Shown here in pieces: positions 3,529 through 50,621 of a stretch of 64,000 bases of DNA. This stretch comes from an uncultured SAR86 cluster bacterium. Its GTDB lineage: Bacteria > Pseudomonadota > Gammaproteobacteria > Magnimaribacterales > AG-339-G14. Position 1 is the first letter of the stretch, and each line of letters opens with the position of its first letter. Made by a program: the position numbers and the translations under genes. The notes beneath the pieces were generated by a model. That model had not been told where the DNA came from. It made no database searches and saw only the letters and a program-made list of their open reading frames with translations. The DNA is taken from contig CABZHD010000001.1 in NCBI GenBank assembly GCA_902525435.1, positions 100,125 through 164,124 of the forward strand, read 5' to 3'.

Positions 3529-4875
3529 TCAAGAAGATATTTTATTAATTATATTAGAAGTTGATTTTCCTTTGACAAGTTTAACTAACTTTATTTGACC
3601 TCCATAAGATTCGACAAATTCCCCGCCGACAACTTGTTCTTTTGTATAGTCTGCTCCTTTAACTAAAATACTGGGCTTCAGTTTTTTGATTAATTTAAGA
3701 GGATTTTCTTCATTGAAAATAATTACTTCATCAACGAATTTTAATGCTGAAAGGATTTTTTTCCTTTCGGACTGACCAATTATTGGCCTATCAGGCCCTT
3801 TTAATTTGCTGATTGATTTATCAGAATTAAGACCAACAATTAGCTTGTCTCCGTAACTTCTTGCTTCTTTAAGTAAATCTAAATGACCAGAGTGGATAAT
3901 ATCGAAGCAACCGTTTGTAAAAACAATAACTTGTTCTTTATTACCTTTTGAGGCCTCCAAACTGGCAACCTCATCTTTGCTTACTGTAGAAGTTCCTAAC
4001 TTAGAAACTGAAATAGATGCTGCTAAATTTGCGAACTCAGCGGCAGAAAAAATATCATTACCCTGAGATAAGGCTGCACCCAAAGCAGATATCGTTGTAT
4101 CCCCTGCACCTGATACATCAAATACCTCTTGCGGATAAGCATTTATGAAGTCTCCTACAATTTTTTTATTAGATTTTGTTAGAACATACATTCCTTCTGA
4201 GCCTAAAGTTATTATTAGAGATTCCAAATTCAAATGCTCCAACATTTTCTTTGCTTTATTTACCAAATCTTTTTTAGAGTCCACCTTGCCCATAATATTT
4301 TCAAATTCAGATTTATTAGGAGTAATTAAATTTGCACCTTTGTACTTTGTAAAATCTTTTCCTTTAGGATCAATAAGGATCTTTTTCTTAAGTTTTTTGG
4401 CAGATTGGATGAGCTTTCTTGCGTTAAAAATAGTGCCCTTCCCATAGTCTGAAACTATTATTAAGTCTGTTTTAGCAATATTTTTAATAAATGTGTTAAA
4501 TATATTGGTTAGCTTGCTTCCATGAAAATACTTCTCATAATCTATCCTTGCTAATTGCTGATTAGAAGACATCAATCTTTGTTTGCAGATGGTTTGAAAG
4601 CTTTTTTCTATTAATAAATTAAACTTTATTTTTTCTGCCTTTAGATGTTCTTTCAGTAAGGAACCAAAATGATCATTGCCAATAGCGCCTATAAGAAAAG
4701 GTTCGATTTCAAGATGCTTTAAATTATTTGCAACGTTTGCTGCGCCGCCCAATTGAAACTTAGACTCTTTGAAATTAACAACTGGTACAGGTGCTTCCGG
4801 AGAAATTCTTGAGGATTCTCCGTGGAGATACCAATCGATCATGACATCACCGATTACAGTTATTTTCTTTTTCAT
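3529..4875 (-). CDS. hldE: Bifunctional heptose-7-phosphate kinase / heptose-1-phosphate adenylyltransferase
   Basis: Kinase motifs RISPEAPVPVV, GGAANVA, DVSGAGDT; C-terminal FTNGCFDIIHSGH. Confidence 0.95.
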   Translation of the reverse strand: MKKKITVIGDVMIDWYLHGESSRISPEAPVPVVNFKESKFQLGGAANVANNLKHLEIEPFLIGAIGNDHFGSLLKEHLKAEKIKFNLLIEKSFQTICKQRLMSSNQQLARIDYEKYFHGSKLTNIFNTFIKNIAKTDLIIVSDYGKGTIFNARKLIQSAKKLKKKILIDPKGKDFTKYKGANLITPNKSEFENIMGKVDSKKDLVNKAKKMLEHLNLESLIITLGSEGMYVLTKSNKKIVGDFINAYPQEVFDVSGAGDTTISALGAALSQGNDIFSAAEFANLAASISVSKLGTSTVSKDEVASLEASKGNKEQVIVFTNGCFDIIHSGHLDLLKEARSYGDKLIVGLNSDKSISKLKGPDRPIIGQSERKKILSALKFVDEVIIFNEENPLKLIKKLKPSILVKGADYTKEQVVGGEFVESYGGQIKLVKLVKGKSTSNIINKISS

Positions 4876-4879
4876 TTTT

Positions 4880-5755
4880 TTAATTCAAGATAAAAGATTC
4901 TATATCAGAACTAAGTTGATCGCCCTTTTCCATTGGCAGGAAATGTGAAGCATCGTATGGTTGAAGCCTAAAATTATGGTTTTTTTGGAGACTTTTTCTT
5001 GCACCATCTCCCAAGGTTGATGCGATTAATGCATAGGGTACGAATACTTTGCACTTTACTTTTTTTATGTATTTCCATGTATCTAGAGATGCGGTATTGA
5101 ATACTTCTGCCTCCCAATGAGGATGGCAGCTTAAATAAGCCTTATCCTGTTCAACAATCATTCCTCCATTTAAGTAATCTTGCAAAATATCATCAGCCCA
5201 AGATTTATAGGCTCCTCTACCTTTAAAGTGATTGAATGCTTCTTGCTTCGATGAAAATTCGAACCTTCTATTTTTTGCAGCCAAAACCATATGAGAAGTT
5301 TTATTCAATCTAAAAAATTTTTTTACTCTTCCATAAGCAGAAAATTTGGGGCCTGGTAAAACAGGATCTATCAAAAATAATCTAGAAATTTCTGAGAACT
5401 CTGTTGAAAGCTTCAAAGCAATAATTGCTCCCATTGAATGACCAGAAAAATATAATTTCTTAGAGGAAAATTTTTGAACAAATTCCTTTGCGTCATCTAC
5501 AAGTGAATTCCATGTAGAGAGTTTTCTGGGGTCTGCATTTGCTGAAGATAATCCATGTCCCCTTTGATCTAAAGAAATTATTTTGTAATTGTCGCCTAAT
5601 TTTTTTGATAGATTGCTCAGAAAGCTATTGTAAGTCTCTGCATTGAAACCGGTGGCATGAAAGAAAAAGATCAAGTTTTCTGCTGCTTGGTTTCCATGGG
5701 TCAGATAGGAAAAATTTTCTCCTTTTGAATTCGTGTAGACTTCTCTAGTAAACAT
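4880..5755 (-). CDS. Alpha/beta-fold hydrolase (esterase/thioesterase-like)
   Basis: Motifs HATGF, DQRGHGLS, GHSMG nucleophile elbow, SHFLPME catalytic His. Confidence 0.85.
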   Translation of the reverse strand: MFTREVYTNSKGENFSYLTHGNQAAENLIFFFHATGFNAETYNSFLSNLSKKLGDNYKIISLDQRGHGLSSANADPRKLSTWNSLVDDAKEFVQKFSSKKLYFSGHSMGAIIALKLSTEFSEISRLFLIDPVLPGPKFSAYGRVKKFFRLNKTSHMVLAAKNRRFEFSSKQEAFNHFKGRGAYKSWADDILQDYLNGGMIVEQDKAYLSCHPHWEAEVFNTASLDTWKYIKKVKCKVFVPYALIASTLGDGARKSLQKNHNFRLQPYDASHFLPMEKGDQLSSDIESFILN

Positions 5756-5763
5756 TTTTTAAA

Positions 5764-6381
5764 GTGAATTGGATTAAAAATTTTAATAATCATATAGGTT
5801 TCCTTGATTTTTCTGAAGCAGAAAGACTTTTTGAAATAGCATCAGAAGCCTCAAAAAAAGGTCCTTGCCTTGAAATTGGAACATATTGTGGGAAATCCTC
5901 GTTAGTCATTGCTGAAGCCTGTGAAACTAATGATAGTTATTTAATAACAGTCGATCATCATATAGGTTCAGAAGAGCATCAGCCTGGCGAAGAATATTTC
6001 GATAAAAATTTCTATGATGAAAGAATTGAGAGATTTAATACTTATCCTGTTTTTAGGTCTTATATTGAGAATTTTCCATACAAAAAATCCATATTGCCTG
6101 CAGTGGGTGATTCAAAGGAAGTAAGTTCGCTCTGGCCGAGGAATTGCGAGATTGGTCTTCTCTTCATCGATGGCAGTCACAGCAAAAAATCGGCATTTTC
6201 AGATTTTAAAGCTTGGAGTGATTTCATTTGCAAAGATGGTTATTTGCTCATACATGATGTTTTTCCAGATCCTAATGATGGAGGTAGGCCGCCCTATGAA
6301 TTATTTGAATATGTAAAAGAAACAAATCAATTTAAATTCATAGAGCTATACAAAACTTTGGGGATATTAAAAAAAATTTAA
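5764..6381 (+). CDS. meT1: SAM-dependent O-methyltransferase, MeT1-like (MMP 1-O-methyltransferase)
   Basis: Motifs EIGTYCGKS, TVDHHxGSEEHQPG, LFIDGSH, IHDVFPDPNDGG match mycobacterial MeT1 as recalled. Methyltransferase class is secure; the specific function is inferred. Confidence 0.75.
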   Translation: MNWIKNFNNHIGFLDFSEAERLFEIASEASKKGPCLEIGTYCGKSSLVIAEACETNDSYLITVDHHIGSEEHQPGEEYFDKNFYDERIERFNTYPVFRSYIENFPYKKSILPAVGDSKEVSSLWPRNCEIGLLFIDGSHSKKSAFSDFKAWSDFICKDGYLLIHDVFPDPNDGGRPPYELFEYVKETNQFKFIELYKTLGILKKI

Positions 6382-6382
6382 A

Positions 6383-7378
6383 CTATAACTTCTTAAAAAA
6401 GTCACCTGTAGAAGTAAATCCACACAATGCATTCGCAGCGAGAATGTATGCTGCTGCAGTCCAAGTAGGTTTTTCAATTGGCCAGTATTTCTCATCATCA
6501 AAGACATAACCCATCCAGAAAATATTGTCTTTGGGATCTTTTAATTCGCTTACTTTTTCAAAGAGATCCTTAGCTTTTTTGGTTTCATCTATTTTTTTTA
6601 GCGTTATTATTAATTCTGATGTTTCAGCTACAGTAATCCAAGGTCTGTCGCTCACGCATCTACAGCCAAACTCTTCATTAATAAAGATGTCCCATTTGGA
6701 ATTAATTTTTTTAATAGCTTCTGATTTATCATAAATTCCTGCCAAAATTGGATAATACCAATCCATGCTGTATCTTTCTTTTGAGTCCCAATTTCTATCA
6801 AATCTAGATGTCTTGTTCAAAAAAACTTTTCTTAAAGCCGTAAGTGAATTTTCTATATGATTAGAATTTAGGCCTAACAAATCAAAAATTTTTTTAAAAG
6901 CTTTCAAGCTCATAAAGATTGATGAGTTACCAGTTTTTAAGGCATCGTCTAACCATTTTCCATTTTCCATAGCCCAAGAGAATTCACCAAAATCAGTTTG
7001 TGCTGAGAGAGTAAACTGAAGCGACTTTTCAAGGGTCGGAAGCAAGTTTTCTAAGAATTTCAAATCTCCATAGCTCTCGTAATTATGTAGTGCCCCAATT
7101 GCAATATAAGAAGAGAAGTTAGATTCTTTTCTAGAAGAAATACTTTTGTTGGCTTGATACTCTGAATACCATGATCCATCATCCTCTTGATGATCAACAA
7201 GCCATTGGAATCCTAGCTTAGATCTTTCCTTTTCTCCAAAAACATCCAAAGCCATACAGCATTCAATATGGTCCCAAGGATCAAGGATTTTATCTTTCTC
7301 CGAAGGAATTCCTCCCCATTCATCTTGACTCTCGGTAATGTATTCCGAAAGATGATTTAACTCAGATAAAGATTTCAA
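6383..7378 (-). CDS. mmpH: (alpha/alpha)-barrel protein usually annotated 'prenyltransferase'; MmpH-like MMP hydrolase
   Basis: Motifs DPWDHIECCMAL, QEDDGSW, TGNSSI, RYSMDWYYPILAG, RCVSDRPWITVAETSE, WPIEKPTWTAAA; located between MeT3-like and MeT1-like genes. Confidence 0.7.
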   Translation of the reverse strand: MKSLSELNHLSEYITESQDEWGGIPSEKDKILDPWDHIECCMALDVFGEKERSKLGFQWLVDHQEDDGSWYSEYQANKSISSRKESNFSSYIAIGALHNYESYGDLKFLENLLPTLEKSLQFTLSAQTDFGEFSWAMENGKWLDDALKTGNSSIFMSLKAFKKIFDLLGLNSNHIENSLTALRKVFLNKTSRFDRNWDSKERYSMDWYYPILAGIYDKSEAIKKINSKWDIFINEEFGCRCVSDRPWITVAETSELIITLKKIDETKKAKDLFEKVSELKDPKDNIFWMGYVFDDEKYWPIEKPTWTAAAYILAANALCGFTSTGDFFKKL

Positions 7379-7387
7379 AACTAGATT

Positions 7388-8092
7388 CTAATTTTTCTCA
7401 AAATAAATAACCGTGCTTTTACCAATCAAAGGTTGCAACATTTTTTCTAAAAATCTTGTTATGAAAGGTTTTTTCATCATATCCCACACTAGAAAGTCAT
7501 GATATTTATTTACTAAGTATGAATCGTCTTGGTTCTTCCAAAATAGGCATTTTAACCACCAATAAGGACTATGAAGTGCATGTTCACGATGTTTCTCAAT
7601 GAATTTACAATTCCTTTCCTCAATCATTTTTCTTAGTTGATTGTATTTAAAAATTCTTACATGTCCGCCTGGAGTTAATTGGTAATCTTTACTGAGAGAC
7701 CAGCAAACCCATTCCGGAAAGAAAGAAGGAACACTCACAGCAATTTTGCCTTTTCGCTTGGTGACTCTAATGATTTCATCAACTGCACAATCAACTTCTG
7801 GAATATGTTCTAGTACCTCTGAGCAAATCAAGTAATCAAAAGTCTCATCGGCAAAAGGAAGTTTTGTGGCATCAGTGCATCCAAAACTGCAACTTTTAGT
7901 ATCAGATTTTTCATCGAATTGTGGAAAATTATCTATTGCTTTCTGAACATCATCTGGATTTAAGTCAAAACCATAAACATCTAAATTTGCATGCATGTAA
8001 GCTCCAAAACAATGCCGACCTTCTCCACAACCAAGGTCAAGAACTTTTGCATTATCTAAAAGATTAAGTTTTTGAATATTTATTGTTTGCAT
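7388..8092 (-). CDS. meT3: Class I SAM methyltransferase, MeT3-like (putative 3-O-methyltransferase)
   Basis: Motifs VLDLGCGEGRH, SEVLEH, GGHVRI, HALHSPYWWLKC, LVWDMM, IGKSTVIYF. Confidence 0.7.
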   Translation of the reverse strand: MQTINIQKLNLLDNAKVLDLGCGEGRHCFGAYMHANLDVYGFDLNPDDVQKAIDNFPQFDEKSDTKSCSFGCTDATKLPFADETFDYLICSEVLEHIPEVDCAVDEIIRVTKRKGKIAVSVPSFFPEWVCWSLSKDYQLTPGGHVRIFKYNQLRKMIEERNCKFIEKHREHALHSPYWWLKCLFWKNQDDSYLVNKYHDFLVWDMMKKPFITRFLEKMLQPLIGKSTVIYFEKN

Positions 8093-9323
8093 GACTCTCT
8101 ATCATTTGATGATAAATATTTTCTAGTTTTAAAGCAGCATTGTGCCACGTAAATTTATCTTTAACTCTAGAGATACCCTTGGCTACCATATTTTTTCTTA
8201 AATCTTCACAAGAAAACAATTCATTTACAGCATCAACGATAGCATTTTCATCTCCAGGAATAATAACCTTTCCAGCTTCTCCAACGATTTCCTTTAAAGA
8301 TCCGCCATCAGATACCACTGCGGGAACCCCACAAGCCATTGCTTCTGCTGCAGCAAAACCAAAACCTTCATACAAGGAAGGAATAACTACTACATGAGAT
8401 GAACAATATTGTTCTCTTAATTCTGAATGAGACAGACCTGATACAAAATTTATATCATCTTTGAGATCTAGACTATTTATGACTCTTTCTGTATGTCCTT
8501 CCTCTCTTATTTTTCCTAAAACACTCAATTTAGCTTTTGGATAATTTTTTTTGATTTCTGGAAAAGCTTTGATCATGAAATCTAATCCTTTCATCGGTAC
8601 GTCAGAGCTTGCGATGGATAATATTTTGTAATCTTCATAAGGCTTATCAGAAGGATAAAAGAAACCCAAATCTATACCGTTGTGAACAACTTCAATACTT
8701 GCATCTTTCAATGAAAAATCTTTAACGACATCTTTCCCAGAAGATTCAGAGGGTACAACAATTTTTTTTAATTTTTTTGCAACCTTTATTTGAGTTGGAA
8801 TAAATGAGTGCCATCTTTTTATAAGGAGTTTTAAGAAAAAATCATTTGTGCTTTTTAGCTGAAATTCTAAATCTTTCGTGATTGGGTGATGGATAGTTGT
8901 CACCAGAGGATATTTCTGCTGAAGAGAAATAAGTTCTTTGCATAAAGTTTGATTGTCATGGAGCACATCAAATTGGCCTACGTTTTCTTCAATAAATTTC
9001 TCGAGTCTTGGGCCAAATGTATGTGGTTCAGGAAAACCGCCACTGTTTGCGCTAATCCATTCTTTCAAATTATTCAAAGAAAATAATTTTGAAAATTTAA
9101 CGTCAAGAAACTTATTTTTTTTTGAAAATAAATCAAGGCTGGGTATTTTAACTAGTTTGATATCTTTTCTTATTTCCGGATAAGGAGGACCAGAGATAAC
9201 AGTAACCTCATGACCAAGATCAGACAGAGCTCTACTTAAATAGTTTATGTAAATGCCTTGACCTCCTGAAGAGGGATTGCCTCTGTAAGTTATCAAACCG
9301 ATTTTTAATTTTTTCTTATTCAA
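8064..9323 (-). CDS. manT: GT4 glycosyltransferase, ManT-like alpha-1,4-mannosyltransferase
   Basis: Motifs YRxxxxSGGQGIY, SGPPYP, PSLDL, GFPEPxTF, HDNQ, HHPITKD, ASSDVPMKG, PSLYEGFG. Start moved to TTG 9323, which overlaps the waaC stop. Confidence 0.75.
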   Translation of the reverse strand: MNKKKLKIGLITYRGNPSSGGQGIYINYLSRALSDLGHEVTVISGPPYPEIRKDIKLVKIPSLDLFSKKNKFLDVKFSKLFSLNNLKEWISANSGGFPEPHTFGPRLEKFIEENVGQFDVLHDNQTLCKELISLQQKYPLVTTIHHPITKDLEFQLKSTNDFFLKLLIKRWHSFIPTQIKVAKKLKKIVVPSESSGKDVVKDFSLKDASIEVVHNGIDLGFFYPSDKPYEDYKILSIASSDVPMKGLDFMIKAFPEIKKNYPKAKLSVLGKIREEGHTERVINSLDLKDDINFVSGLSHSELREQYCSSHVVVIPSLYEGFGFAAAEAMACGVPAVVSDGGSLKEIVGEAGKVIIPGDENAIVDAVNELFSCEDLRKNMVAKGISRVKDKFTWHNAALKLENIYHQMIESHANNKYSKT

Positions 9324-10272
9324 AACTCTCTTCTTTAAGCATCTCAATAATTAGGGAAGGATTTATTTCGGTCATTTTTGATTTCTTGATCACTCTTTGA
9401 TAATCAAAAACAGGCCCTACTTTTGAAGGATCCGTAGGCCCAAATAAAAAAATTCCAGATAATCCTAAGCCTGCGCATATATGAGTTAGACCTGTGTCGA
9501 CTCCTATAAAAAATGAACACTTATCAAACTCTTCTTTGATCTTGTGAAAATTATCAGTTTCCAACTTAAAGGCTCTAGAATTAATTTCATTTATTTCTTT
9601 AAAGTAATTTAATTGATTCTTTCCATGGACAGGTACACAAATATCTAAATTGAAATCTTTTAAGTGATCGGCTAATTTTTTCCAATAATCTAAGGGATAT
9701 TCTTTATTTCTCCTGCTAGACCCATGAACGAAAATAATCTTATTTTTTTTATCTAAACCTTCTTGCTTAAAACCATAATCATGTTCTTTATTTGGCTCAT
9801 AATTTAAACTTTCAGCTGCTAATTTTTTCATTCTCATTACTGCATGTTCATCCTTAGTAATATTTATTCCCTTGTCGTATAAAAATGTTAAAAGTCCTTC
9901 TTTTGCTGATTTAAAGCTATAACCAATAAAATTTTTCGAGCTGGAAATTTTTTTGATTTTTGAACCTATGATTTGAGTTCTCATCAATCCTTGAAAATCA
10001 ATTACAAAGTCATAAGTGATATTTTTAAATGATGCATTTATTTCTTTATTCAAATTCTTAAGTCTTTTCACAAAAGATTGATTTTTTGTTTCTCTTAATG
10101 AAATTGAAAAGAAATTGTCGATAGAGTGATTTAATTTTGCTGTGCTGAGAAATGTGCGATCAACTAGAAAATCTACTCTAGATTCCGGGTAATTCTTTTT
10201 TATGTCTTCAATGGCTGGAAAGGAATGAATTATATCTCCCAGCGAAGAGGTTTTAATTATTAAGATTTTCAA
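9316..10272 (-). CDS. waaC: LPS heptosyltransferase I (GT9)
   Basis: Motifs IKTSSLGDIIH, IDFQGL, HAVMR, GVDTGLTH, LFGPTDP. Confidence 0.85.
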   Translation of the reverse strand: MKILIIKTSSLGDIIHSFPAIEDIKKNYPESRVDFLVDRTFLSTAKLNHSIDNFFSISLRETKNQSFVKRLKNLNKEINASFKNITYDFVIDFQGLMRTQIIGSKIKKISSSKNFIGYSFKSAKEGLLTFLYDKGINITKDEHAVMRMKKLAAESLNYEPNKEHDYGFKQEGLDKKNKIIFVHGSSRRNKEYPLDYWKKLADHLKDFNLDICVPVHGKNQLNYFKEINEINSRAFKLETDNFHKIKEEFDKCSFFIGVDTGLTHICAGLGLSGIFLFGPTDPSKVGPVFDYQRVIKKSKMTEINPSLIIEMLKEESFE

Positions 10273-11207
10273 TTATCAGAAATATTAGTTAACCATTCAG
10301 GGAATAAAATGTGCTCCCCTCTTACATGATTAGAGTATTTTGACTGAAGAATCTTGGTAATAGGTCCTCTTTGACCATTTGATATTTTATTTTTATCAAC
10401 AAACGTTATTGGCAATACCTCTGCTGCAGTCCCTGTAAAAAAAAGTTCATCTGCTTGAATAACCTCTTCTGGAGAGATGTTCTTCTCAATAACATCAATT
10501 TTTTCATTCTTAGCTAAATCAATGATACTTTTTCTTGTTATACCATTAAGTGATGCCTCAACATCAGGAGTGAATATTTTCCCATCTTTCACCATGAAAA
10601 AGTTTTCTCCGGAACCTTCAGCAACATTTCCTTCTGTGTCTAACATTAAAGCTTCATCAAAACCTGCTTCAAGAGCTTCATTAAGTGCAACAATAGAATT
10701 AACGTAGTTTCCGTTAACTTTTGATCTCGACACTTTATTCCCTCTTTGTCTTGTGTAACTAGATAGTTTTACTTTGATTCCTTGCTCGTAAAGCTCTGGG
10801 GAAAGGTAGCTTGGCCAATACCAAGCGGCAACAATGCAGTGAACTTTAAGATTATCAGCTCTAAGTCCCAAGCCTTCAGAACCATAAAAGCACATAGGCC
10901 TTATATAAGCTTCCTCTAACTTATTTCTTTTTACGACTTCTATTTGAGCTTTATTTATTTCGTCTTTTGAATAAGGAATTTTTAATTTAACAGTATCTGC
11001 AGATTCAAAAAGGCGATCTGTGTGGTCCTTAAGACGGAAAATCGTTGGTCCTTGCGTGGTAGAATAAGCTCTAACACCTTCAAATACACCTAATCCGTAA
11101 TGAAGAGTATGAGTTAAAACATGAACTTTGGCATCTTTCCAGTCAACATACTGGCCATCAAACCATACAACGCCATCTATATTTTCAAGGCCTTTTGAAG
11201 TATCCAT
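10269..11207 (-). CDS. ilvE: Branched-chain amino acid aminotransferase
   Basis: Motifs HVLTHTLHYGLGVFEG, AYIRP, EGSGENFF, FTGTAAE. Confidence 0.96.
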   Translation of the reverse strand: MDTSKGLENIDGVVWFDGQYVDWKDAKVHVLTHTLHYGLGVFEGVRAYSTTQGPTIFRLKDHTDRLFESADTVKLKIPYSKDEINKAQIEVVKRNKLEEAYIRPMCFYGSEGLGLRADNLKVHCIVAAWYWPSYLSPELYEQGIKVKLSSYTRQRGNKVSRSKVNGNYVNSIVALNEALEAGFDEALMLDTEGNVAEGSGENFFMVKDGKIFTPDVEASLNGITRKSIIDLAKNEKIDVIEKNISPEEVIQADELFFTGTAAEVLPITFVDKNKISNGQRGPITKILQSKYSNHVRGEHILFPEWLTNISDN

Positions 11208-11224: not shown

Positions 11225-12604
11225 ATGCAAATTAATCAAAATATTTTTAGAGCATATGATATCAGAGGTATTGCATCTGAGGACCTGAGCGATGAATTTG
11301 TTATGTCTTTGGGATCAGCTTTGAGTCATAAAATTAAAAAATTAGGTTTAAATCAAGTTGTAGTAGCTCGCGACGGAAGATTATCTGGAGCAAGAATTTA
11401 CTCAGCCTTGATTAACTCCTTCTTAGATAATGGTGTAGATGTCATAAATGCAGGAATGGTGCCCTCACCTCTACTTTATTTTGCGGTTGAGAAATTAAAT
11501 ACTAAGAATGGAGTCATGATCACAGGAAGCCACAACCCCAAAGAATATAATGGATTTAAAATAATCTTGGGCGGTAAAACTATTTACGGGCAAGAAATTC
11601 AAAATATTAAAAACTACATACTTCAAGGCACTCACTCGAAAGAAATCCAGAAAGGTAATTTAGAAGAGATAGATATTTTAGATGATTATATTAATGAGCT
11701 TAAAAATAATATCTCATTAAAAAGGTCCATGAAGATTTGTCTTGATTGTGGAAATGGTGTTGGCGGGATGATTGCGCCAAAAGCATTTAAAGCAATTGGT
11801 TGTGAAGTTGTAGAACTTTTCAGCGAAGTAGATGGAAATTTTCCAAATCATCACCCAGATCCTGGTAATCCGAAAAATCTTGAAGACTTGCAGAGCAAAA
11901 TAAAAGAATCAAATGCTGATATTGGCATAGCCTTGGACGGTGATGCAGATAGAGTTGGCATTGTTGATAACTCAGGGAAAATAATCTACCCAGATATTCA
12001 AATGATTCTGTATGCAGGCCAAGTTTTAGAGAAAAATAAAAATGCAACAATCATTTTTGATGTCAAATGTTCTAACATCCTAAAAAATTTCATTGAAGAA
12101 AATTCTGGCATAGCTTACATGTCAAAAACTGGCCACTCATACATAAAGAAGAATCTTTTTGAAAAGAATGCTCTTTTAGCCGGAGAAATGAGTGGGCATA
12201 TTTTCTTTAAAGATAGATGGTTTGGTTTCGACGACGCTATTTATGCTGGAAGTAGAATGTTAGAGATTTTGTCAGAAAAAGAAAAAAATTCATCAGATAT
12301 TTTTTCTGAACTACCTCAGAATTTATCAACACCAGAGATAAATATATCTGTTTCAGATGAAAATAAGTTTTCAATAATAAGTAAACTAATAAAAATACTG
12401 GAGAAAGAAAGTGGAGAGATTAGCTCCCTAGATGGAATTAGAATAGATAGAGATTCTTGCTGGGGTCTTATAAGAGCATCAAATACTTCACCAAACTTGG
12501 TTTTAAGGTTTGAAGGAAATTCGCCTCAAGATTTGGATGATATAAAAAATGTATTTAAAAAAGCTATTTCAAAAGTGGATAATACGATCAAAGCAAACTT
12601 TTAA
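11225..12604 (+). CDS. algC: Phosphomannomutase/phosphoglucomutase
   Basis: Motifs FRAYDIRG, TGSHNP, DGDADR, GEMSGH, RASNT. Confidence 0.93.
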   Translation: MQINQNIFRAYDIRGIASEDLSDEFVMSLGSALSHKIKKLGLNQVVVARDGRLSGARIYSALINSFLDNGVDVINAGMVPSPLLYFAVEKLNTKNGVMITGSHNPKEYNGFKIILGGKTIYGQEIQNIKNYILQGTHSKEIQKGNLEEIDILDDYINELKNNISLKRSMKICLDCGNGVGGMIAPKAFKAIGCEVVELFSEVDGNFPNHHPDPGNPKNLEDLQSKIKESNADIGIALDGDADRVGIVDNSGKIIYPDIQMILYAGQVLEKNKNATIIFDVKCSNILKNFIEENSGIAYMSKTGHSYIKKNLFEKNALLAGEMSGHIFFKDRWFGFDDAIYAGSRMLEILSEKEKNSSDIFSELPQNLSTPEINISVSDENKFSIISKLIKILEKESGEISSLDGIRIDRDSCWGLIRASNTSPNLVLRFEGNSPQDLDDIKNVFKKAISKVDNTIKANF

Positions 12605-48219: not shown

Positions 48220-48684
48220 ATGCCTAATGGATCTGATCAGGTCTACCTAGTTTCAGGCAGTAATTCTGGCAATTCACAAAATTACCTAAAAAAAGCTATT
48301 CTTCTTATCGAGAGGATTAAAAACACAAAAATAATTTCTACTTCGTCAATCTATCAATCCAAAAGTTACGGTCCAATTAAACAAAGGGACTATTTAAATC
48401 AGGCCATCCATATTAAAACAAAGTTAAATCCTTTTGAGTTACTCGATCAGGTCTTATCTATAGAAGATAATTTAGGTCGAGTTAGAGATGAAAGATGGGG
48501 GCCAAGAATCATCGATATAGATATTGTTTTTTATGGTGATGAAGAAATCTCAACTCCCAATCTCACAATTCCTCATTATGATTGGAAAAATAGGGATTTT
48601 TTTATTGCATGCTTGGAAGAAATAAGTTGCCCTTTCGTTGAGGGGAATGGTTTATCATTGAAGAAAGTAAAAAAGCTAGTTTGA
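48220..48684 (+). CDS. folK: HPPK (dihydropterin pyrophosphokinase)
   Basis: Motifs [24 protein letters not shown]. Confidence 0.92.
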
Positions 48685-48686
48685 AA

Positions 48687-50621
48687 ATGTCAGATAAGAT
48701 CTTTCCAGTACCAAAAAAATCTAATCTTGTTCCGCTTATTTCTGACGAGAAATACAGTGAACTTTATAGATTCTCCATAGATAACCCAAAAGAATTTTGG
48801 GGTGAGCAAGCTCTATCTAGGATAAATTGGATAAAGCCTTTTGATGATGTGCTTTCCACAAATATGGAAAAAGCTGAGTTTGAGTGGTTTTCTAATGGAA
48901 AGTTAAATGCTTGCTTTAATTGCGTTGACAAACATCTTGAAAATAATGGCAATGACATCGCTTTCATTTGGGAAAGTGACGACGGCAGCACATCTAAAAA
49001 AATTACTTACAAAGAATTATATGAAGAGGTATGTCGATTATCTAATTTACTTAAATCAAGAGGAATAAAAAAAGGAGATAGGGTGTGTATTTACATGCCC
49101 ATGATTTTGGAGGCTATTTATTCAATGCTTGCCTGCGCAAGAATTGGTGCGGTACATTCAGTAGTTTTTGGAGGATTTTCTGTCGAATCATTGAAAGACA
49201 GAATTCTTGATTCTGATTGCCATACGATAATTACTGCAAATGAAGGATTAAGAGGAGGTAAAAAAGTTCCTCTAAAAAACAATGTGGACTCCGCAGTAGA
49301 GCAATGTCCTAATGTTCACACTGTTATAGTTGTTAAAAATACAGATACAGAAATTGATACAAATCCTGAGATTGATGTTGCCTACTCTGACGTAATTTCA
49401 AATTTTGAACCCCACTGTGAATGTGAACCAATGGATTCTGAAGATCCACTTTTTATTCTTTACACATCTGGTTCAACCGGAAAACCAAAAGGAGTCTTGC
49501 ATACAACAGCTGGATACCTTCTCTCTTCTGGAATAACTCACGAACTTGTATTCAATTATAAAAAAGACAAGGTTTATTGGTGCACAGCGGACGTAGGTTG
49601 GATAACCGGTCATACTTATATTGTTTATGGTCCTCTGATGAACTGTGCTACCTCAGTTATTTTCGAGGGAGTCCCAACTTATCCAGATTATTCAAGATTT
49701 TGGGATATTGTGGATAAATATAAGGTAAATATTTTTTATACAGCTCCAACAGCGATAAGAGCATTAATGGCTCAAGGTGATGAACCTGTAAAAAAAACCG
49801 ATAGGGGATCTTTAGAAGTGCTAGGAACCGTAGGAGAACCAATAAATCCAGAAGCTTGGGAATGGTATTTTAATGTGGTGGGTAATAGTCAATGTCCAAT
49901 TGTCGACACCTGGTGGCAAACAGAAACTGGAGCAATGATGATAACTGGCCTAGCTGCTTTAACATCTCAGAAACCTGGCAGTGCTTCTAAGCCATTTCTT
50001 GGAGTAAATCCTGTGCTTCTAGATGAAAATGGCAAAGAAATATCTGGAGCAGGTACAGGTAATTTAGCCATCAAAGATCCATGGCCCTCTCAAATCAGAT
50101 CAGTGTATGGAGATCATCAAAGATGCATTGATACATATTTTAAAACTTACCCTGGGTATTATTTTACTGGGGATGGGGCTAAAAGAGATGAAGATGGATA
50201 TTTTTGGATAACTGGAAGGGTTGATGATGTTTTAAATGTCTCAGGACATAGGCTTGGCACCGCTGAAATTGAAAGTGCATTAGTCTTGCATGAGCAAGTC
50301 GCAGAAGCTGCTGTTGTTGGTTATGAACATAAAATAAAAGGGCAAGGAATTTACTGTTACGTTACCCTAATGGTAGGTTCGTTGGGTAAAGACTCTCTAA
50401 AGATAGAATTAGTGGATTTGGTAGCTAAAGAGATTGGTGCCATCGCTAAACCAGACATTATTCAATTTTCTCCTGACTTGCCTAAAACGAGGTCAGGAAA
50501 AATTATGCGAAGAATTCTGAGAAAAATTGCTGCAAATGAGATCTATGATCTTGGAGATACGACAACCCTTGCTGATCCTGGTGTAGTTGACCAATTGATC
50601 AACAATCGATTAAATAAATAA
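48687..50621 (+). CDS. acs: Acetyl-CoA synthetase
   Basis: Motifs [41 protein letters not shown]. Start is ATG 48687 (TTG 48681 possible). Confidence 0.97.

Follow-up and report, generated by a model that had tools for sequence, protein, structure and literature searches.

Methylmannose polysaccharide (MMP) is seen in the literature as something special to mycobacteria and a small number of their actinobacterial relatives: a linear, cytoplasmic chain of 11-14 alpha-1,4-linked 3-O-methylmannose units with a 1-O-methyl aglycon. The question raised by the present locus is whether a Gram-negative gammaproteobacterium from the sea, whose genome measures about 1.1-1.3 Mb, carries the genes for such a polymer. 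The window (the whole stretch of 64,000 nucleotides that was analysed) belongs to the SAR86 order Magnimaribacterales, and SAR86-type bacteria rank with the most numerous heterotrophs in surface seawater.

The four genes and their mycobacterial counterparts

A preliminary description of this DNA had claimed four adjacent and intact MMP-type genes. The open reading frames bear this out, as all four are intact and lie side by side within positions 5764-9347, and every motif quoted in that description was found in their translations. The genes and two of their neighbours are as follows.

4880-5755, minus strand: alpha/beta hydrolase (Pfam Hydrolase_4/Abhydrolase_6), divergent from MeT1 across an 8-bp gap
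5764-6381, plus strand: predicted MeT1 orthologue, 205 aa, Methyltransf_24, convergent with mmpH
6383-7378, minus strand: predicted MmpH orthologue, 331 aa, (alpha/alpha)6-barrel
7388-8092, minus strand: predicted pMeT3 orthologue, 234 aa, class-I SAM methyltransferase
8064-9347, minus strand: predicted ManT orthologue, 427 aa (longest frame), GT4 retaining glycosyltransferase
11225-12604, plus strand: phosphomannomutase/phosphoglucomutase (PMM/PGM), PGM_PMM domains I-IV; NCBIfam PgmG, E 1.2e-138, below the curated cut-off

The ManT frame overlaps the stop codon of waaC (heptosyltransferase I; TIGR02193, E 6.1e-69) and contains an in-frame TTG at 9323, the end given in the preliminary description; it is preceded by AGAGAG and is the likely start codon. 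ManT, pMeT3 and MmpH follow one another, with MeT1 convergent behind them. This arrangement is that of MHAS_04402-04405 of Mycobacterium hassiacum, orientation included, and recurs in the loci L131, L136, L137, L139, L140, L142 and L145. With a G+C content of 0.33-0.35 against 0.29-0.36 in the flanks, the four genes are as AT-rich as their neighbours, as had been stated beforehand. No signal peptide or membrane segment was predicted in any of the four proteins (maximum Kyte-Doolittle 19-residue mean 1.38), which are accordingly classed, by prediction, as soluble.

Reverse searches against the whole genome were made with the proteins of four actinobacterial loci, two of which (L142 and L145) are tied to M. 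hassiacum through MmpH. The window genes were the top genome match for MeT1, MmpH and pMeT3 of all four loci and for ManT of L142 and L145; all four (4/4) are reciprocal best hits of their mycobacterial-type counterparts, at 32-44% identity between the window and mycobacterial proteins. The assignment made in the preliminary description also agrees with the solved structures, the best PDB matches being the MMP enzymes of M. hassiacum. Judged from their sequences, the four genes are orthologues of ManT, pMeT3, MmpH and MeT1 of the MMP cluster.

The MeT1 protein belongs to Pfam PF13578 (Methyltransf_24; E 2.9e-19), and its sole PDB match is 6g7d (E 1.9e-39, residues 11-204 aligned). In one mycobacterial-type locus, the product of the gene that converges on MmpH almost equals this structure (373 bits over 191 aa), so that 6g7d marks the MeT1 position. 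The motifs EIGTYCGKS, DHHIGSEEHQPG and HDVFPDP are present, and 34 of the 38 family columns conserved to at least 95% outside the order are kept, including the DHH.GSEEHQ.G and HD blocks. The protein is predicted to be a 1-O-methyltransferase capping the reducing end.

The barrel protein matched no Pfam family, and its sole PDB match is 7qsj (E 2.6e-62); PDB 7QSJ is MmpH and PDB 7QSG is ManT (PMC9883506). It carries the motifs DPWDH and SMDWYYP and keeps 55 of 63 family-conserved columns. By hand count on the 7qsj alignment (chain offset +1), the published residues D47, W49, D50, F102, T163, M215, Y219, E262 and E265 are identical in the window in nine cases out of nine (D33, W35, D36, F87, T149, M205, Y209, E252 and E255). 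Among these, Glu262 is the catalytic base, Asp47 and Asp50 are acid candidates, and Trp49, Phe102, Thr163, Met215, Tyr219 and Glu265 are subsite residues (PMC9883506). The window MmpH is predicted to be an alpha-1,4-endomannosidase that would turn the polymer into recycled primers.

The second methyltransferase matches Pfam Methyltransf_31/11/25, carries the motif HALHSPYWWLKC and is 41.5-43.9% identical to its positional counterparts in the four actinobacterial loci; these counterparts returned it at 202-219 bits, against 47 bits for the next match in the genome. It keeps 47 of 48 family-conserved columns, in a family with 32 invariant columns (24 sequences, three phyla). The nearest solved folds to its AF2 model (pLDDT 94.9) are those of the sugar O-methyltransferases AtmM and RebM (TM 0.67, 17% identity), a modelled likeness that counts as weak support. 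The protein is a putative 3-O-methyltransferase of mannose units; in mycobacteria, too, this activity of pMeT3 is graded only 'very likely' (PMC9883506).

The glycosyltransferase (Pfam Glycos_transf_1/Glyco_transf_4) matches 7qsg at E 4.8e-80, against 4e-21 for the next-best structure, and the partial L142 and L145 queries returned it at 135-144 bits against 38. The motifs GGQG, GFPEP, HDNQ and HHPIT are present, and 68 of 76 family-conserved columns are kept over positions 14-412, the N-terminal acceptor domain included. A hand count on the 7qsg alignment (chain offset +26) places G15, H142, K240, E313, G314, F315 and E321 among the residues kept, of which K240, E313 and E321 are essential by mutagenesis (PMC9883506). 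L317, a main-chain contact, is replaced by F, and D293 by H, with Leu291 kept. The protein is predicted to be an alpha-1,4-mannosyltransferase. The published catalytic residues of both MmpH and ManT align, in keeping with the preliminary description.

Distribution and descent of the cluster

The order comprises four families with genomes of 0.9-1.8 Mb. The MmpH gene was found in 57 of its 59 genomes (4 families, 14 genera), and all four genes in 55, adjacent in 53, so that a cluster noted in one genome is near-universal in the order. In two genomes MeT1 is separated from the rest by about 10 kb or sits on a different contig, and in two the cluster is cut by contig ends. No MmpH, pMeT3 or MeT1 was found in G024 (92% complete) or G026 (81% complete).

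Outside the order, the four-gene unit was found in Halieaceae, Cellvibrionaceae, some Alphaproteobacteria, Smithella-like Thermodesulfobacteriota and Streptomyces, a spread over at least three phyla. As it occurs widely elsewhere in Proteobacteria and also in Thermodesulfobacteriota, the unit is no private trait of the window's lineage. The MmpH-like family is small: among 1.84 billion representatives, 1046 reach E <= 1e-3 and 117 reach E <= 1e-30; since the same order recurs in many unrelated genomes, the grouping of the four genes is not a matter of chance. The literature search found no description of MMP genes outside Actinobacteria, and the earlier remark had been that no account of such a polymer in this group was known; the survey of Maranha et al. 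(2023) searched only actinobacterial genomes (PMC9883506).

The window MmpH falls inside the MmpH family tree. The order and two metagenome-assembled genomes form their own clade (SH-aLRT 98), and the Actinomycetota a separate one (SH-aLRT 100) that includes the mycobacterial-type L142, in a quick-method, unrooted tree with composition bias flagged for the order's rows. On account of this gene tree, the cluster is taken not to be a recent import and to have resided in the order, by vertical descent, for a long time, as had been suggested from its AT-richness. The label 'mycobacterial-type' given to it beforehand should not be taken to mean acquisition from mycobacteria, as the MmpH of the order stands in its own clade.

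Proposed product, mannose donor and competing explanations

The cluster most likely makes and recycles a soluble, cytoplasmic, alpha-1,4-linked 3-O-methylmannose chain, as in mycobacteria, a reading to which we give a probability of roughly two in three. ManT would extend an oligomannoside primer with activated mannose, pMeT3 would methylate the added units at O-3, and MeT1 would methylate O-1 at the reducing end. MmpH would then cleave mature chains, the defined fragments serving as primers for daughter chains, which is the 'partially conservative replication' of MMP described for M. hassiacum and M. smegmatis (PMC9883506).

The preliminary description had called the gene set complete. This is true of the four known genes, but a canonical GDP-mannose pyrophosphorylase (ManC) was not found in the genome or in most of its relatives. 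In the window's genome (79% complete), ManC (TIGR01479) gave a partial cupin match only, and the two NTP_transferase genes encode a GalU-like protein and a 463-aa frame taken, by its length, to be GlmU. Of the 59 genomes of the order, 5 have a ManC above the TIGR01479 cut-off and 10 have ManC-like frames, while a CTP_transf_like/PMI-cupin fusion is found in 40, the window's genome among them. In this fusion, a putative bifunctional enzyme, an RfaE-domain-II-like nucleotidyltransferase would take the place of the ManC transferase domain before the PMI cupin, and the donor might then be something other than GDP-mannose. Another component of the GDP-mannose route (PMI, PMM and GDP-mannose pyrophosphorylase), the PMM/PGM gene, is present; across most loci of the order it is a neighbour of ilvE and ManT, and it possibly supplies mannose-1-phosphate as a member of the system.

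These observations bear on the suggestion that the same enzyme families carry out a different chemistry here, yielding a related glycan other than MMP. Such a glycan might differ in chain length, in methylation pattern or in the activated sugar, which could be another hexose or mannose on a nucleotide other than GDP, or might be a short methylated oligosaccharide solute. Besides the scarcity of canonical ManC among cluster-bearing genomes and the fusion found in its stead, the modest identity to the characterised enzymes favours this view, and an acetylated variant (AMMP) is already made by Streptomyces griseus, no acetyltransferase having been identified beside the window cluster. Leu291 and Asp293 of ManT are proposed to recognise guanine, which would imply GDP-mannose as donor, by a contact that 'could be maintained' (PMC9883506). 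The Asp293 position holds His in the window and varies within the order; most other Gammaproteobacteria have Thr there, and Asp is confined to Actinomycetota. The donor nucleotide could therefore differ. However, all nine MmpH residues, those of the sugar subsites included, are kept in an enzyme highly specific for alpha-1,4-linked 3-O-methylmannose (PMC9883506), the conserved columns of ManT extend through its acceptor domain, and the co-occurrence of the four genes as a single unit in different phyla speaks for one conserved product. A different chemistry is accordingly regarded as unlikely.

A role in the envelope, with a methylated mannan built or trimmed on the lipopolysaccharide core or O-chain, is suggested by the neighbourhood: ManT overlaps waaC, and hldE, two genes from MeT1 in the window, adjoins MeT1 in 8 of 80 loci outside the order and also in genomes of a second family (f2). 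A proteobacterial 3-O-methylmannose homopolymer is indeed known as the lipopolysaccharide O-chain of Oligotropha carboxidovorans (cited in PMC9883506), although it is likened here by polymer and not by genes and, unlike MMP, is alpha-1,2-linked, 35-40 units long and surface-bound. Yet in three other genera of the window's family the cluster is flanked by panB and ilvE, with waaC and hldE not adjacent, and the unit is unchanged in Actinomycetota, which are without lipopolysaccharide. It includes no flippase, polymerase, ligase or lipid-carrier gene, its proteins lack predicted signal peptides and membrane segments, and an endo-hydrolase together with a reducing-end 1-O-methyltransferase would suit a free soluble chain rather than a lipid-linked one, which makes an envelope function quite improbable. 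It is scarcely credible that MmpH, although a hydrolase in an order said to break down glycolipids and lipid head groups (PMC11582366), serves to degrade methylated mannans of seawater with the other genes acting in salvage. Two SAM methyltransferases and a glycosyltransferase are anabolic, the unit has no transporter, MmpH has no export signal, and deletion of mmpH in M. smegmatis abolishes MMP synthesis (PMC9883506).

If the cluster does make an MMP-like chain, the polymer would be a helical host for long acyl chains, either acyl-CoA or fatty acids. Such a role, in cells centred on the beta-oxidation of lipids, is inferred and is less certain than the product itself; beta-oxidation is central to SAR86 carbon metabolism (PMC11582366), and the acyl-CoA role of MMP in mycobacteria is itself 'proposed' (PMC9883506). 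Alternatively or in addition, the polymer might be a cold-adaptation factor as in M. smegmatis, whose mmpH mutant has a cold phenotype (PMC9883506). The wider proposal, that SAR86-type and other lineages make intracellular MMP as an acyl-chain host during life on lipids, with the donor in most SAR86 supplied through the uncharacterised bifunctional fusion, is decidedly tentative. The other lineages concerned are Halieaceae, Cellvibrionaceae, Spongiibacteraceae, Parvibaculum and Smithella, which are marine, hydrocarbon- or lipid-associated.

Comparison with known systems and significance

The window shares the four families, their order and their orientation with the clusters MHAS_04402-04405 of M. 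hassiacum and MSMEG_6481-6484 of M. smegmatis (PMC9883506), along with the published catalytic residues of MmpH and ManT and the solubility of the proteins. It differs in its neighbours (ilvE, waaC, PMM and hldE), in sequence (32-44% identity), in the separate MmpH clade, in the non-conservation of ManT Asp293 and in the lack of a canonical ManC in most genomes of the order. ManT-pMeT3-MmpH is colinear in all Streptomyces loci seen, as in the window, but MeT1 lies roughly 2.5-5.5 kb past MmpH there, whereas in the window it abuts MmpH. Streptomyces is an MMP producer without a mycobacterial lifestyle. Mycobacteria have a second cytoplasmic polymethylated polysaccharide for which sequestration of acyl-CoA has been proposed, 6-O-methylglucose lipopolysaccharide or MGLP (PMC9883506), and in that respect it would work in a similar way to MMP. 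It has its own sugar, linkage and gene set, and the likeness is one of analogy only, none of the window's proteins having been matched to MGLP.

The intact four-gene unit belongs to the core of this order almost throughout, although the marine genomes concerned are extremely reduced, and the retention of 3.5 kb in such genomes implies selection. Should the polymer be made, polymethylated polysaccharides would be a device of bacteria in general and no mere oddity of mycobacteria, and the lipid-centred metabolism proposed for SAR86 would gain a concrete, testable connection. The function of MMP, still unsettled in mycobacteria, could then be probed in genetically simpler hosts and in a cultured SAR86 isolate. 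More speculatively, the polymer might be one origin of the methylated sugars in marine organic matter. As weak support, contigs of four marine metatranscriptome libraries (three studies) span all four genes at identities of at least 95%, contigs from RNA libraries not being proof of transcription.

The alpha/beta hydrolase gene was not seen in any of the 80 loci outside the order. Within the order, it lies beside MeT1 in nearly all loci of the window's family (f1), the exception, L149, being cut at a contig end, and in one locus of the second family (L015).

Gene layout and protein identities

The preliminary description had recognized in the window a complete methylmannose polysaccharide (MMP) gene set of the mycobacterial type, and every motif quoted in it was found in the translations of the four reading frames. 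ManT, pMeT3 and MmpH follow one another in tandem on the minus strand, with 29 bases of overlap and then a gap of 9, and the series is extended upstream by waaC and ilvE, which overlap each other. MeT1 is convergent with MmpH, the two stop codons being one base apart. The genes concerned are listed below.

Genes of the cluster and its surroundings (positions in the window)
3529-4875: hldE (heptose kinase/adenylyltransferase)
4880-5755, minus strand: alpha/beta hydrolase, divergent from MeT1
5764-6381, plus strand: MeT1, 205 aa, intact reading frame
6383-7378, minus strand: MmpH, 331 aa, intact reading frame
7388-8092, minus strand: pMeT3, 234 aa, intact reading frame
8064-9347, minus strand: ManT, longest frame 427 aa, intact reading frame
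9316-10272: waaC, upstream of ManT in the minus-strand series
10269-11207: ilvE, upstream of waaC in the minus-strand series

An in-frame TTG at 9323 of the ManT frame, preceded by AGAGAG and overlapping the waaC stop codon, is plausibly the true start of this glycosyltransferase. At the other end of the cluster, the start codons of MeT1 and the alpha/beta hydrolase are only 8 bases apart, and the MeT1 promoter must therefore be situated inside the hydrolase gene. Weak NCBIfam matches of this hydrolase were to esterases and an intracellular PHA depolymerase.

Domain searches were of limited use for identification. Pfam recognized a GT4 glycosyltransferase (ManT), a class-I methyltransferase (pMeT3) and a Methyltransf_24 protein (MeT1) and matched no domain in the 331-aa MmpH, while in NCBIfam none of the four has a model of its own, and matches were generic or sub-threshold only. 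Sequence searches of the solved structures were more informative: the sole match of MmpH was 7qsj, "methylmannose polysaccharide hydrolase (MmpH)" (E 2.6e-62), ManT matched 7qsg (E 4.8e-80; next match 4e-21), and MeT1 matched only 6g7d, 6g80 and 6h40 (E 1.9e-39). We take 6g7d to be MeT1. This is supported, as far as sequence likeness goes, by its near-identity (373 bits over 191 residues) to a gene convergent with MmpH in a mycobacterial-type locus, the MmpH of which scores 620 bits against 7qsj. The structures 7QSJ and 7QSG are those of MmpH and ManT of Mycobacterium hassiacum (Maranha et al., 2023; PMC9883506). Taken as sequence comparisons, these searches are decisive for the predicted identities of three of the four proteins, MmpH, ManT and MeT1.

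No specific relative of pMeT3 was found among the solved-structure sequences, and its assignment relies on 41.5-43.9% identity to the corresponding gene of four actinobacterial loci (L131, L137, L142 and L145), where it occupies the equivalent place; L142 and L145 were linked to M. hassiacum through their MmpH. The reciprocal best matches proposed as a check in the preliminary description were obtained throughout: when the entire genome to which the window belongs was queried with MeT1, MmpH and pMeT3 of all four loci, and with the partial ManT sequences of L142 and L145, the window genes ranked first every time. The margins were wide for pMeT3 (202-219 bits, next match 47) and partial ManT (135-144 bits, next match 38), and for MeT1 and MmpH there was no second match anywhere in that genome. 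The genome also carries a second Methyltransf_24 gene (contig 8, 21664-21975; E 2.7e-13 to the Pfam model); the mycobacterial-type MeT1 queries did not match it, and it is thus regarded as a paralogue outside the MMP system. ESM Atlas placed MmpH in unnamed or "prenyltransferase" clusters only, from Actinomycetota, Thermodesulfobacteriota and Pseudomonadota, which is used here as a lead only.

Active sites and the proposed MMP cycle

Residues were mapped by hand count on HMMER alignments, with chain offsets of +1 (7qsj) and +26 (7qsg), both of which reproduce the residue numbering of PMC9883506. All nine active-centre residues placed there for MmpH (Asp47, Trp49, Asp50, Phe102, Thr163, Met215, Tyr219, Glu262 and Glu265) are kept in the window protein. 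The catalytic residues of ManT are likewise kept (Gly15, His142, Lys240, Glu313-Gly314-Phe315 and Glu321). Leu317 is replaced by Phe and Asp293 by His. Asp293 was suggested as a possible guanine contact (PMC9883506). Among 90 aligned ManT homologues, Asp occupies this column only in Actinomycetota; Thr is found in most other Gammaproteobacteria, and the column is variable in the window's order. Asp293 was accordingly rejected as a guide to donor specificity; since the column varies outside Actinomycetota, the His of the window says little either way.

Columns conserved in at least 95% of sequences outside the window's order, which for MeT1 were used in place of a published active-site list, are largely kept by the window proteins (MeT1 34/38, MmpH 55/63, pMeT3 47/48, ManT 68/76), and the departures are mostly conservative. 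Neither a signal peptide nor a membrane-spanning stretch was predicted in any of the four. AlphaFold2 modelled pMeT3 with confidence (pLDDT 94.9), and a fold search with the model returned generic class-I methyltransferases. The top matches, AtmM and RebM, are sugar O-methyltransferases (TM 0.67, 17% identity); the modelled fold is weakly indicative, being compatible with sugar methylation and not specific to it.

In the DPWDH motif of MmpH, the second Asp (Asp50) is replaced by Asn in three loci of divergent genomes of the same class (L026, L027 and L028), and the first Asp by Glu in another (L024). The D50A variant of the mycobacterial enzyme has much reduced activity (PMC9883506), and the copies with an altered Asp may differ in function or be poor enzymes.

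In MMP, 11-14 3-O-methylmannoses are joined by alpha-1,4 linkages in a linear chain that carries a methyl aglycon. In mycobacteria, mature chains are cut by MmpH to defined fragments, which ManT extends from GDP-mannose if they comprise three or four units or more, the free 1-OH is methylated by MeT1, and the 3-O-methyltransferase is "very likely" pMeT3; a mutant in mmpH is without MMP and shows slower growth at 15 degrees C (all PMC9883506). The window enzymes keep the machinery for each of these steps, and for this reason the mycobacterial cycle is taken as the best explanation of the cluster: MmpH would cut mature MMP chains to defined fragments, ManT would extend these from activated mannose, MeT1 would methylate the free 1-OH, and pMeT3 would be the putative 3-O-methyltransferase of the chain. 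Two rival readings, in which the cluster modifies lipopolysaccharide or is catabolic, were ranked low beside the MMP cycle. Several other bearers of the cluster are associated with alkanes or lipids: Smithella, Parvibaculum, Pseudomaricurvus hydrocarbonicus and the mycobacteria with their relatives. Beta-oxidation has been described as central to SAR86 carbon metabolism (PMC11582366), and a physiological role of the polymer beside this pathway, as a host for long acyl chains, would be in keeping with it.

Distribution and descent

The cluster proved near-universal in the window's order, Magnimaribacterales, when surveyed as the preliminary description had proposed. An MmpH homologue (30-99% identity) was found in 57 of 59 genomes, covering four families and 14 genera, and in 53 of the 57 loci, all of which were fetched, the four genes are adjacent with order and orientation unchanged. 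Two genomes of a single genus have MeT1 some 10 kb off or on a separate contig, and in two others the unit is cut by a contig end. MmpH, pMeT3 and MeT1 were all not found in G024 (92% complete) and G026 (81%, 2157 withheld bases). The window genome itself (1.10 Mb, 32 contigs) is 79% complete. Genome sizes in the four families surveyed were 0.9-1.1, 1.0-1.3, 1.2-1.3 and 1.4-1.8 Mb; SAR86 has been described as four families of 1.05-1.66 Mb and 31-40% G+C (PMC11582366). ManT is flanked in most loci of the order by ilvE and a phosphomannomutase/phosphoglucomutase gene. The stretch is present in marine, seawater and estuary metagenomes of 14 studies. Contigs from four marine metatranscriptome libraries (three studies) cover the whole cluster and the genes flanking it at 95% identity or more; being fragments in RNA libraries, with neither strand, ends nor level and with DNA carry-over possible, they lend weak support to expression.

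Outside the order, even samples gave MmpH in 6 of 396 genomes of the same class, 4 of 400 other genomes of the phylum and 69 of 251 Actinomycetes (including one unpublished genome, of which no locus was used). A pattern scan with one genome per species yielded at least 586 confirmed relatives. The best 80 of these came from Halieaceae, Luminiphilus, Cellvibrionaceae, Spongiibacteraceae, Microbulbifer, Pseudomaricurvus hydrocarbonicus and Seongchinamella, as well as two Alphaproteobacteria (one Parvibaculum), Smithella/Syntrophaceae, Streptomyces, Embleya and Nitriliruptoraceae. The cluster is present in the loci of P. hydrocarbonicus JCM 30134 and Seongchinamella sediminis U0301. Of the 80 loci, 75 have ManT, pMeT3 and MmpH in a colinear array, the other five being cut by contig ends, and so do 30/30 loci of the Actinomycetes sample; the unit is thus kept across at least three phyla. 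MeT1 lies within 6 kb in 58 of the 75 colinear loci, on the opposite strand in 57. In the Streptomyces loci (L059, L065-L103) MeT1 is located roughly 2.5-5.5 kb beyond MmpH, unlike the abutting arrangement in the window, so other genes must be inserted in the unit; these could be related to acetylation of the Streptomyces polymer.

The MMP system is taken as already known and its host range as new; among the hosts is now an abundant marine order of streamlined genomes, nearly all of which carry the cluster. The 2023 survey of MMP genes covered mycobacteria and related Actinobacteria only (PMC9883506), and the literature searched, in main texts rather than supplements, contained no placing of MMP genes outside Actinobacteria. 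Nor, supplements apart, was any earlier description of such a polymer in this group found, as had been supposed at the outset; the main text of a comparative study of SAR86 uses neither "mannose" nor "methyltransferase" (PMC11582366).

An MmpH tree was built from 79 rows (129 sequences, near-duplicates above 80% identity dropped) by the quick method of IQ-TREE and left unrooted, with SH-aLRT support. The window's order and two gammaproteobacterial MAGs formed one clade (98), Actinomycetota another that includes the mycobacterial-type L142 (100), and Thermodesulfobacteriota a third (100); the remaining Gammaproteobacteria and two Alphaproteobacteria made up a weaker clade (86). A composition bias flagged for the rows of the order, together with the long branches of L027, L028 and L018, leaves the deep relations unsure. 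Long branches were also seen in the smallest-genome family of the order, for which a fast clock has been reported (PMC11582366). The long residence proposed in the preliminary description is supported by the order's own MmpH clade, by G+C like that of the neighbours (0.33-0.35 in the four genes against 0.29-0.36 around them) and by presence in all four families, which together point to long vertical residence and not to recent transfer from Actinobacteria.

Several neighbouring genes recur. The alpha/beta hydrolase comes after MeT1 in the window's family (f1), adjoining it in nearly all loci there, and in one genome of a second family (f2); the 80 outside loci all lack it at this place. In f2, and likewise in a number of genomes of Halieaceae and Halioglobus, hldE lies directly past MeT1; in the window's genus one alpha/beta-hydrolase gene stands between. 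Among the best 80 outside loci, hldE is downstream of MeT1 in eight, two of them probably in the order, and ilvE is upstream of ManT in two that are not SAR86 (L034 and L101). The shared ilvE and hldE neighbours could reflect either old synteny or block transfer.

Loci with hldE beyond MeT1
L014, L031, L032, L042, L045, L054, L060, L064, L107, L164, L166, L170

Mannose donor and a fusion protein

Of the bifunctional GDP-mannose pyrophosphorylase/PMI (TIGR01479), only the C-terminal cupin part was found in the window genome, in a 254-aa protein. Its NTP_transferase genes are two, a GalU-like protein and a 463-aa frame taken, from its length, to be GlmU; in near-complete relatives the only frames found were of GalU, RmlA, MurU and GlmU size. 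Across the 59 genomes of the order ManC passes the cut-off in five, and ManC-like frames occur in ten. An intact fusion of about 255 aa, joining a cytidylyltransferase-like domain to a MannoseP_isomer cupin, is present in 40, with partial copies at contig ends in three more; six genomes have neither. For the cytidylyltransferase-like part, NCBIfam gave RfaE domain II as its best match (heptose-1-phosphate adenylyltransferase; E 4.5e-17, below the cut-off).

Fusion gene in the window genome
Contig 1, 48452-49213 (= L111:1495-2259, minus strand): 254 aa, about 51 kb upstream of the window

It is neighboured by a gene of the UDP-glucose/GDP-mannose dehydrogenase family and an epimerase. The complementary occurrence of the two genes suggests that the fusion may replace ManC, possibly as a non-orthologous replacement. 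With such a replacement, the donor of ManT in the window's family might not be GDP-mannose. ESM Atlas clusters of this architecture are annotated mostly from marine viruses, and a literature search on its Pfam names found no paper on the fusion. The ManC-like gene and the fusion co-occur in one genome only, the CHAB-I-7-like G055 (family f4), in which the fusion is decayed, with 11 stop codons and remnants on two contigs. The ManC-like gene of G055 (contig 2, 914982-916392) is itself split by a TAG into frames of 100 and 398 aa, and this genome looks like a lineage caught midway through replacement between ManC and the fusion.
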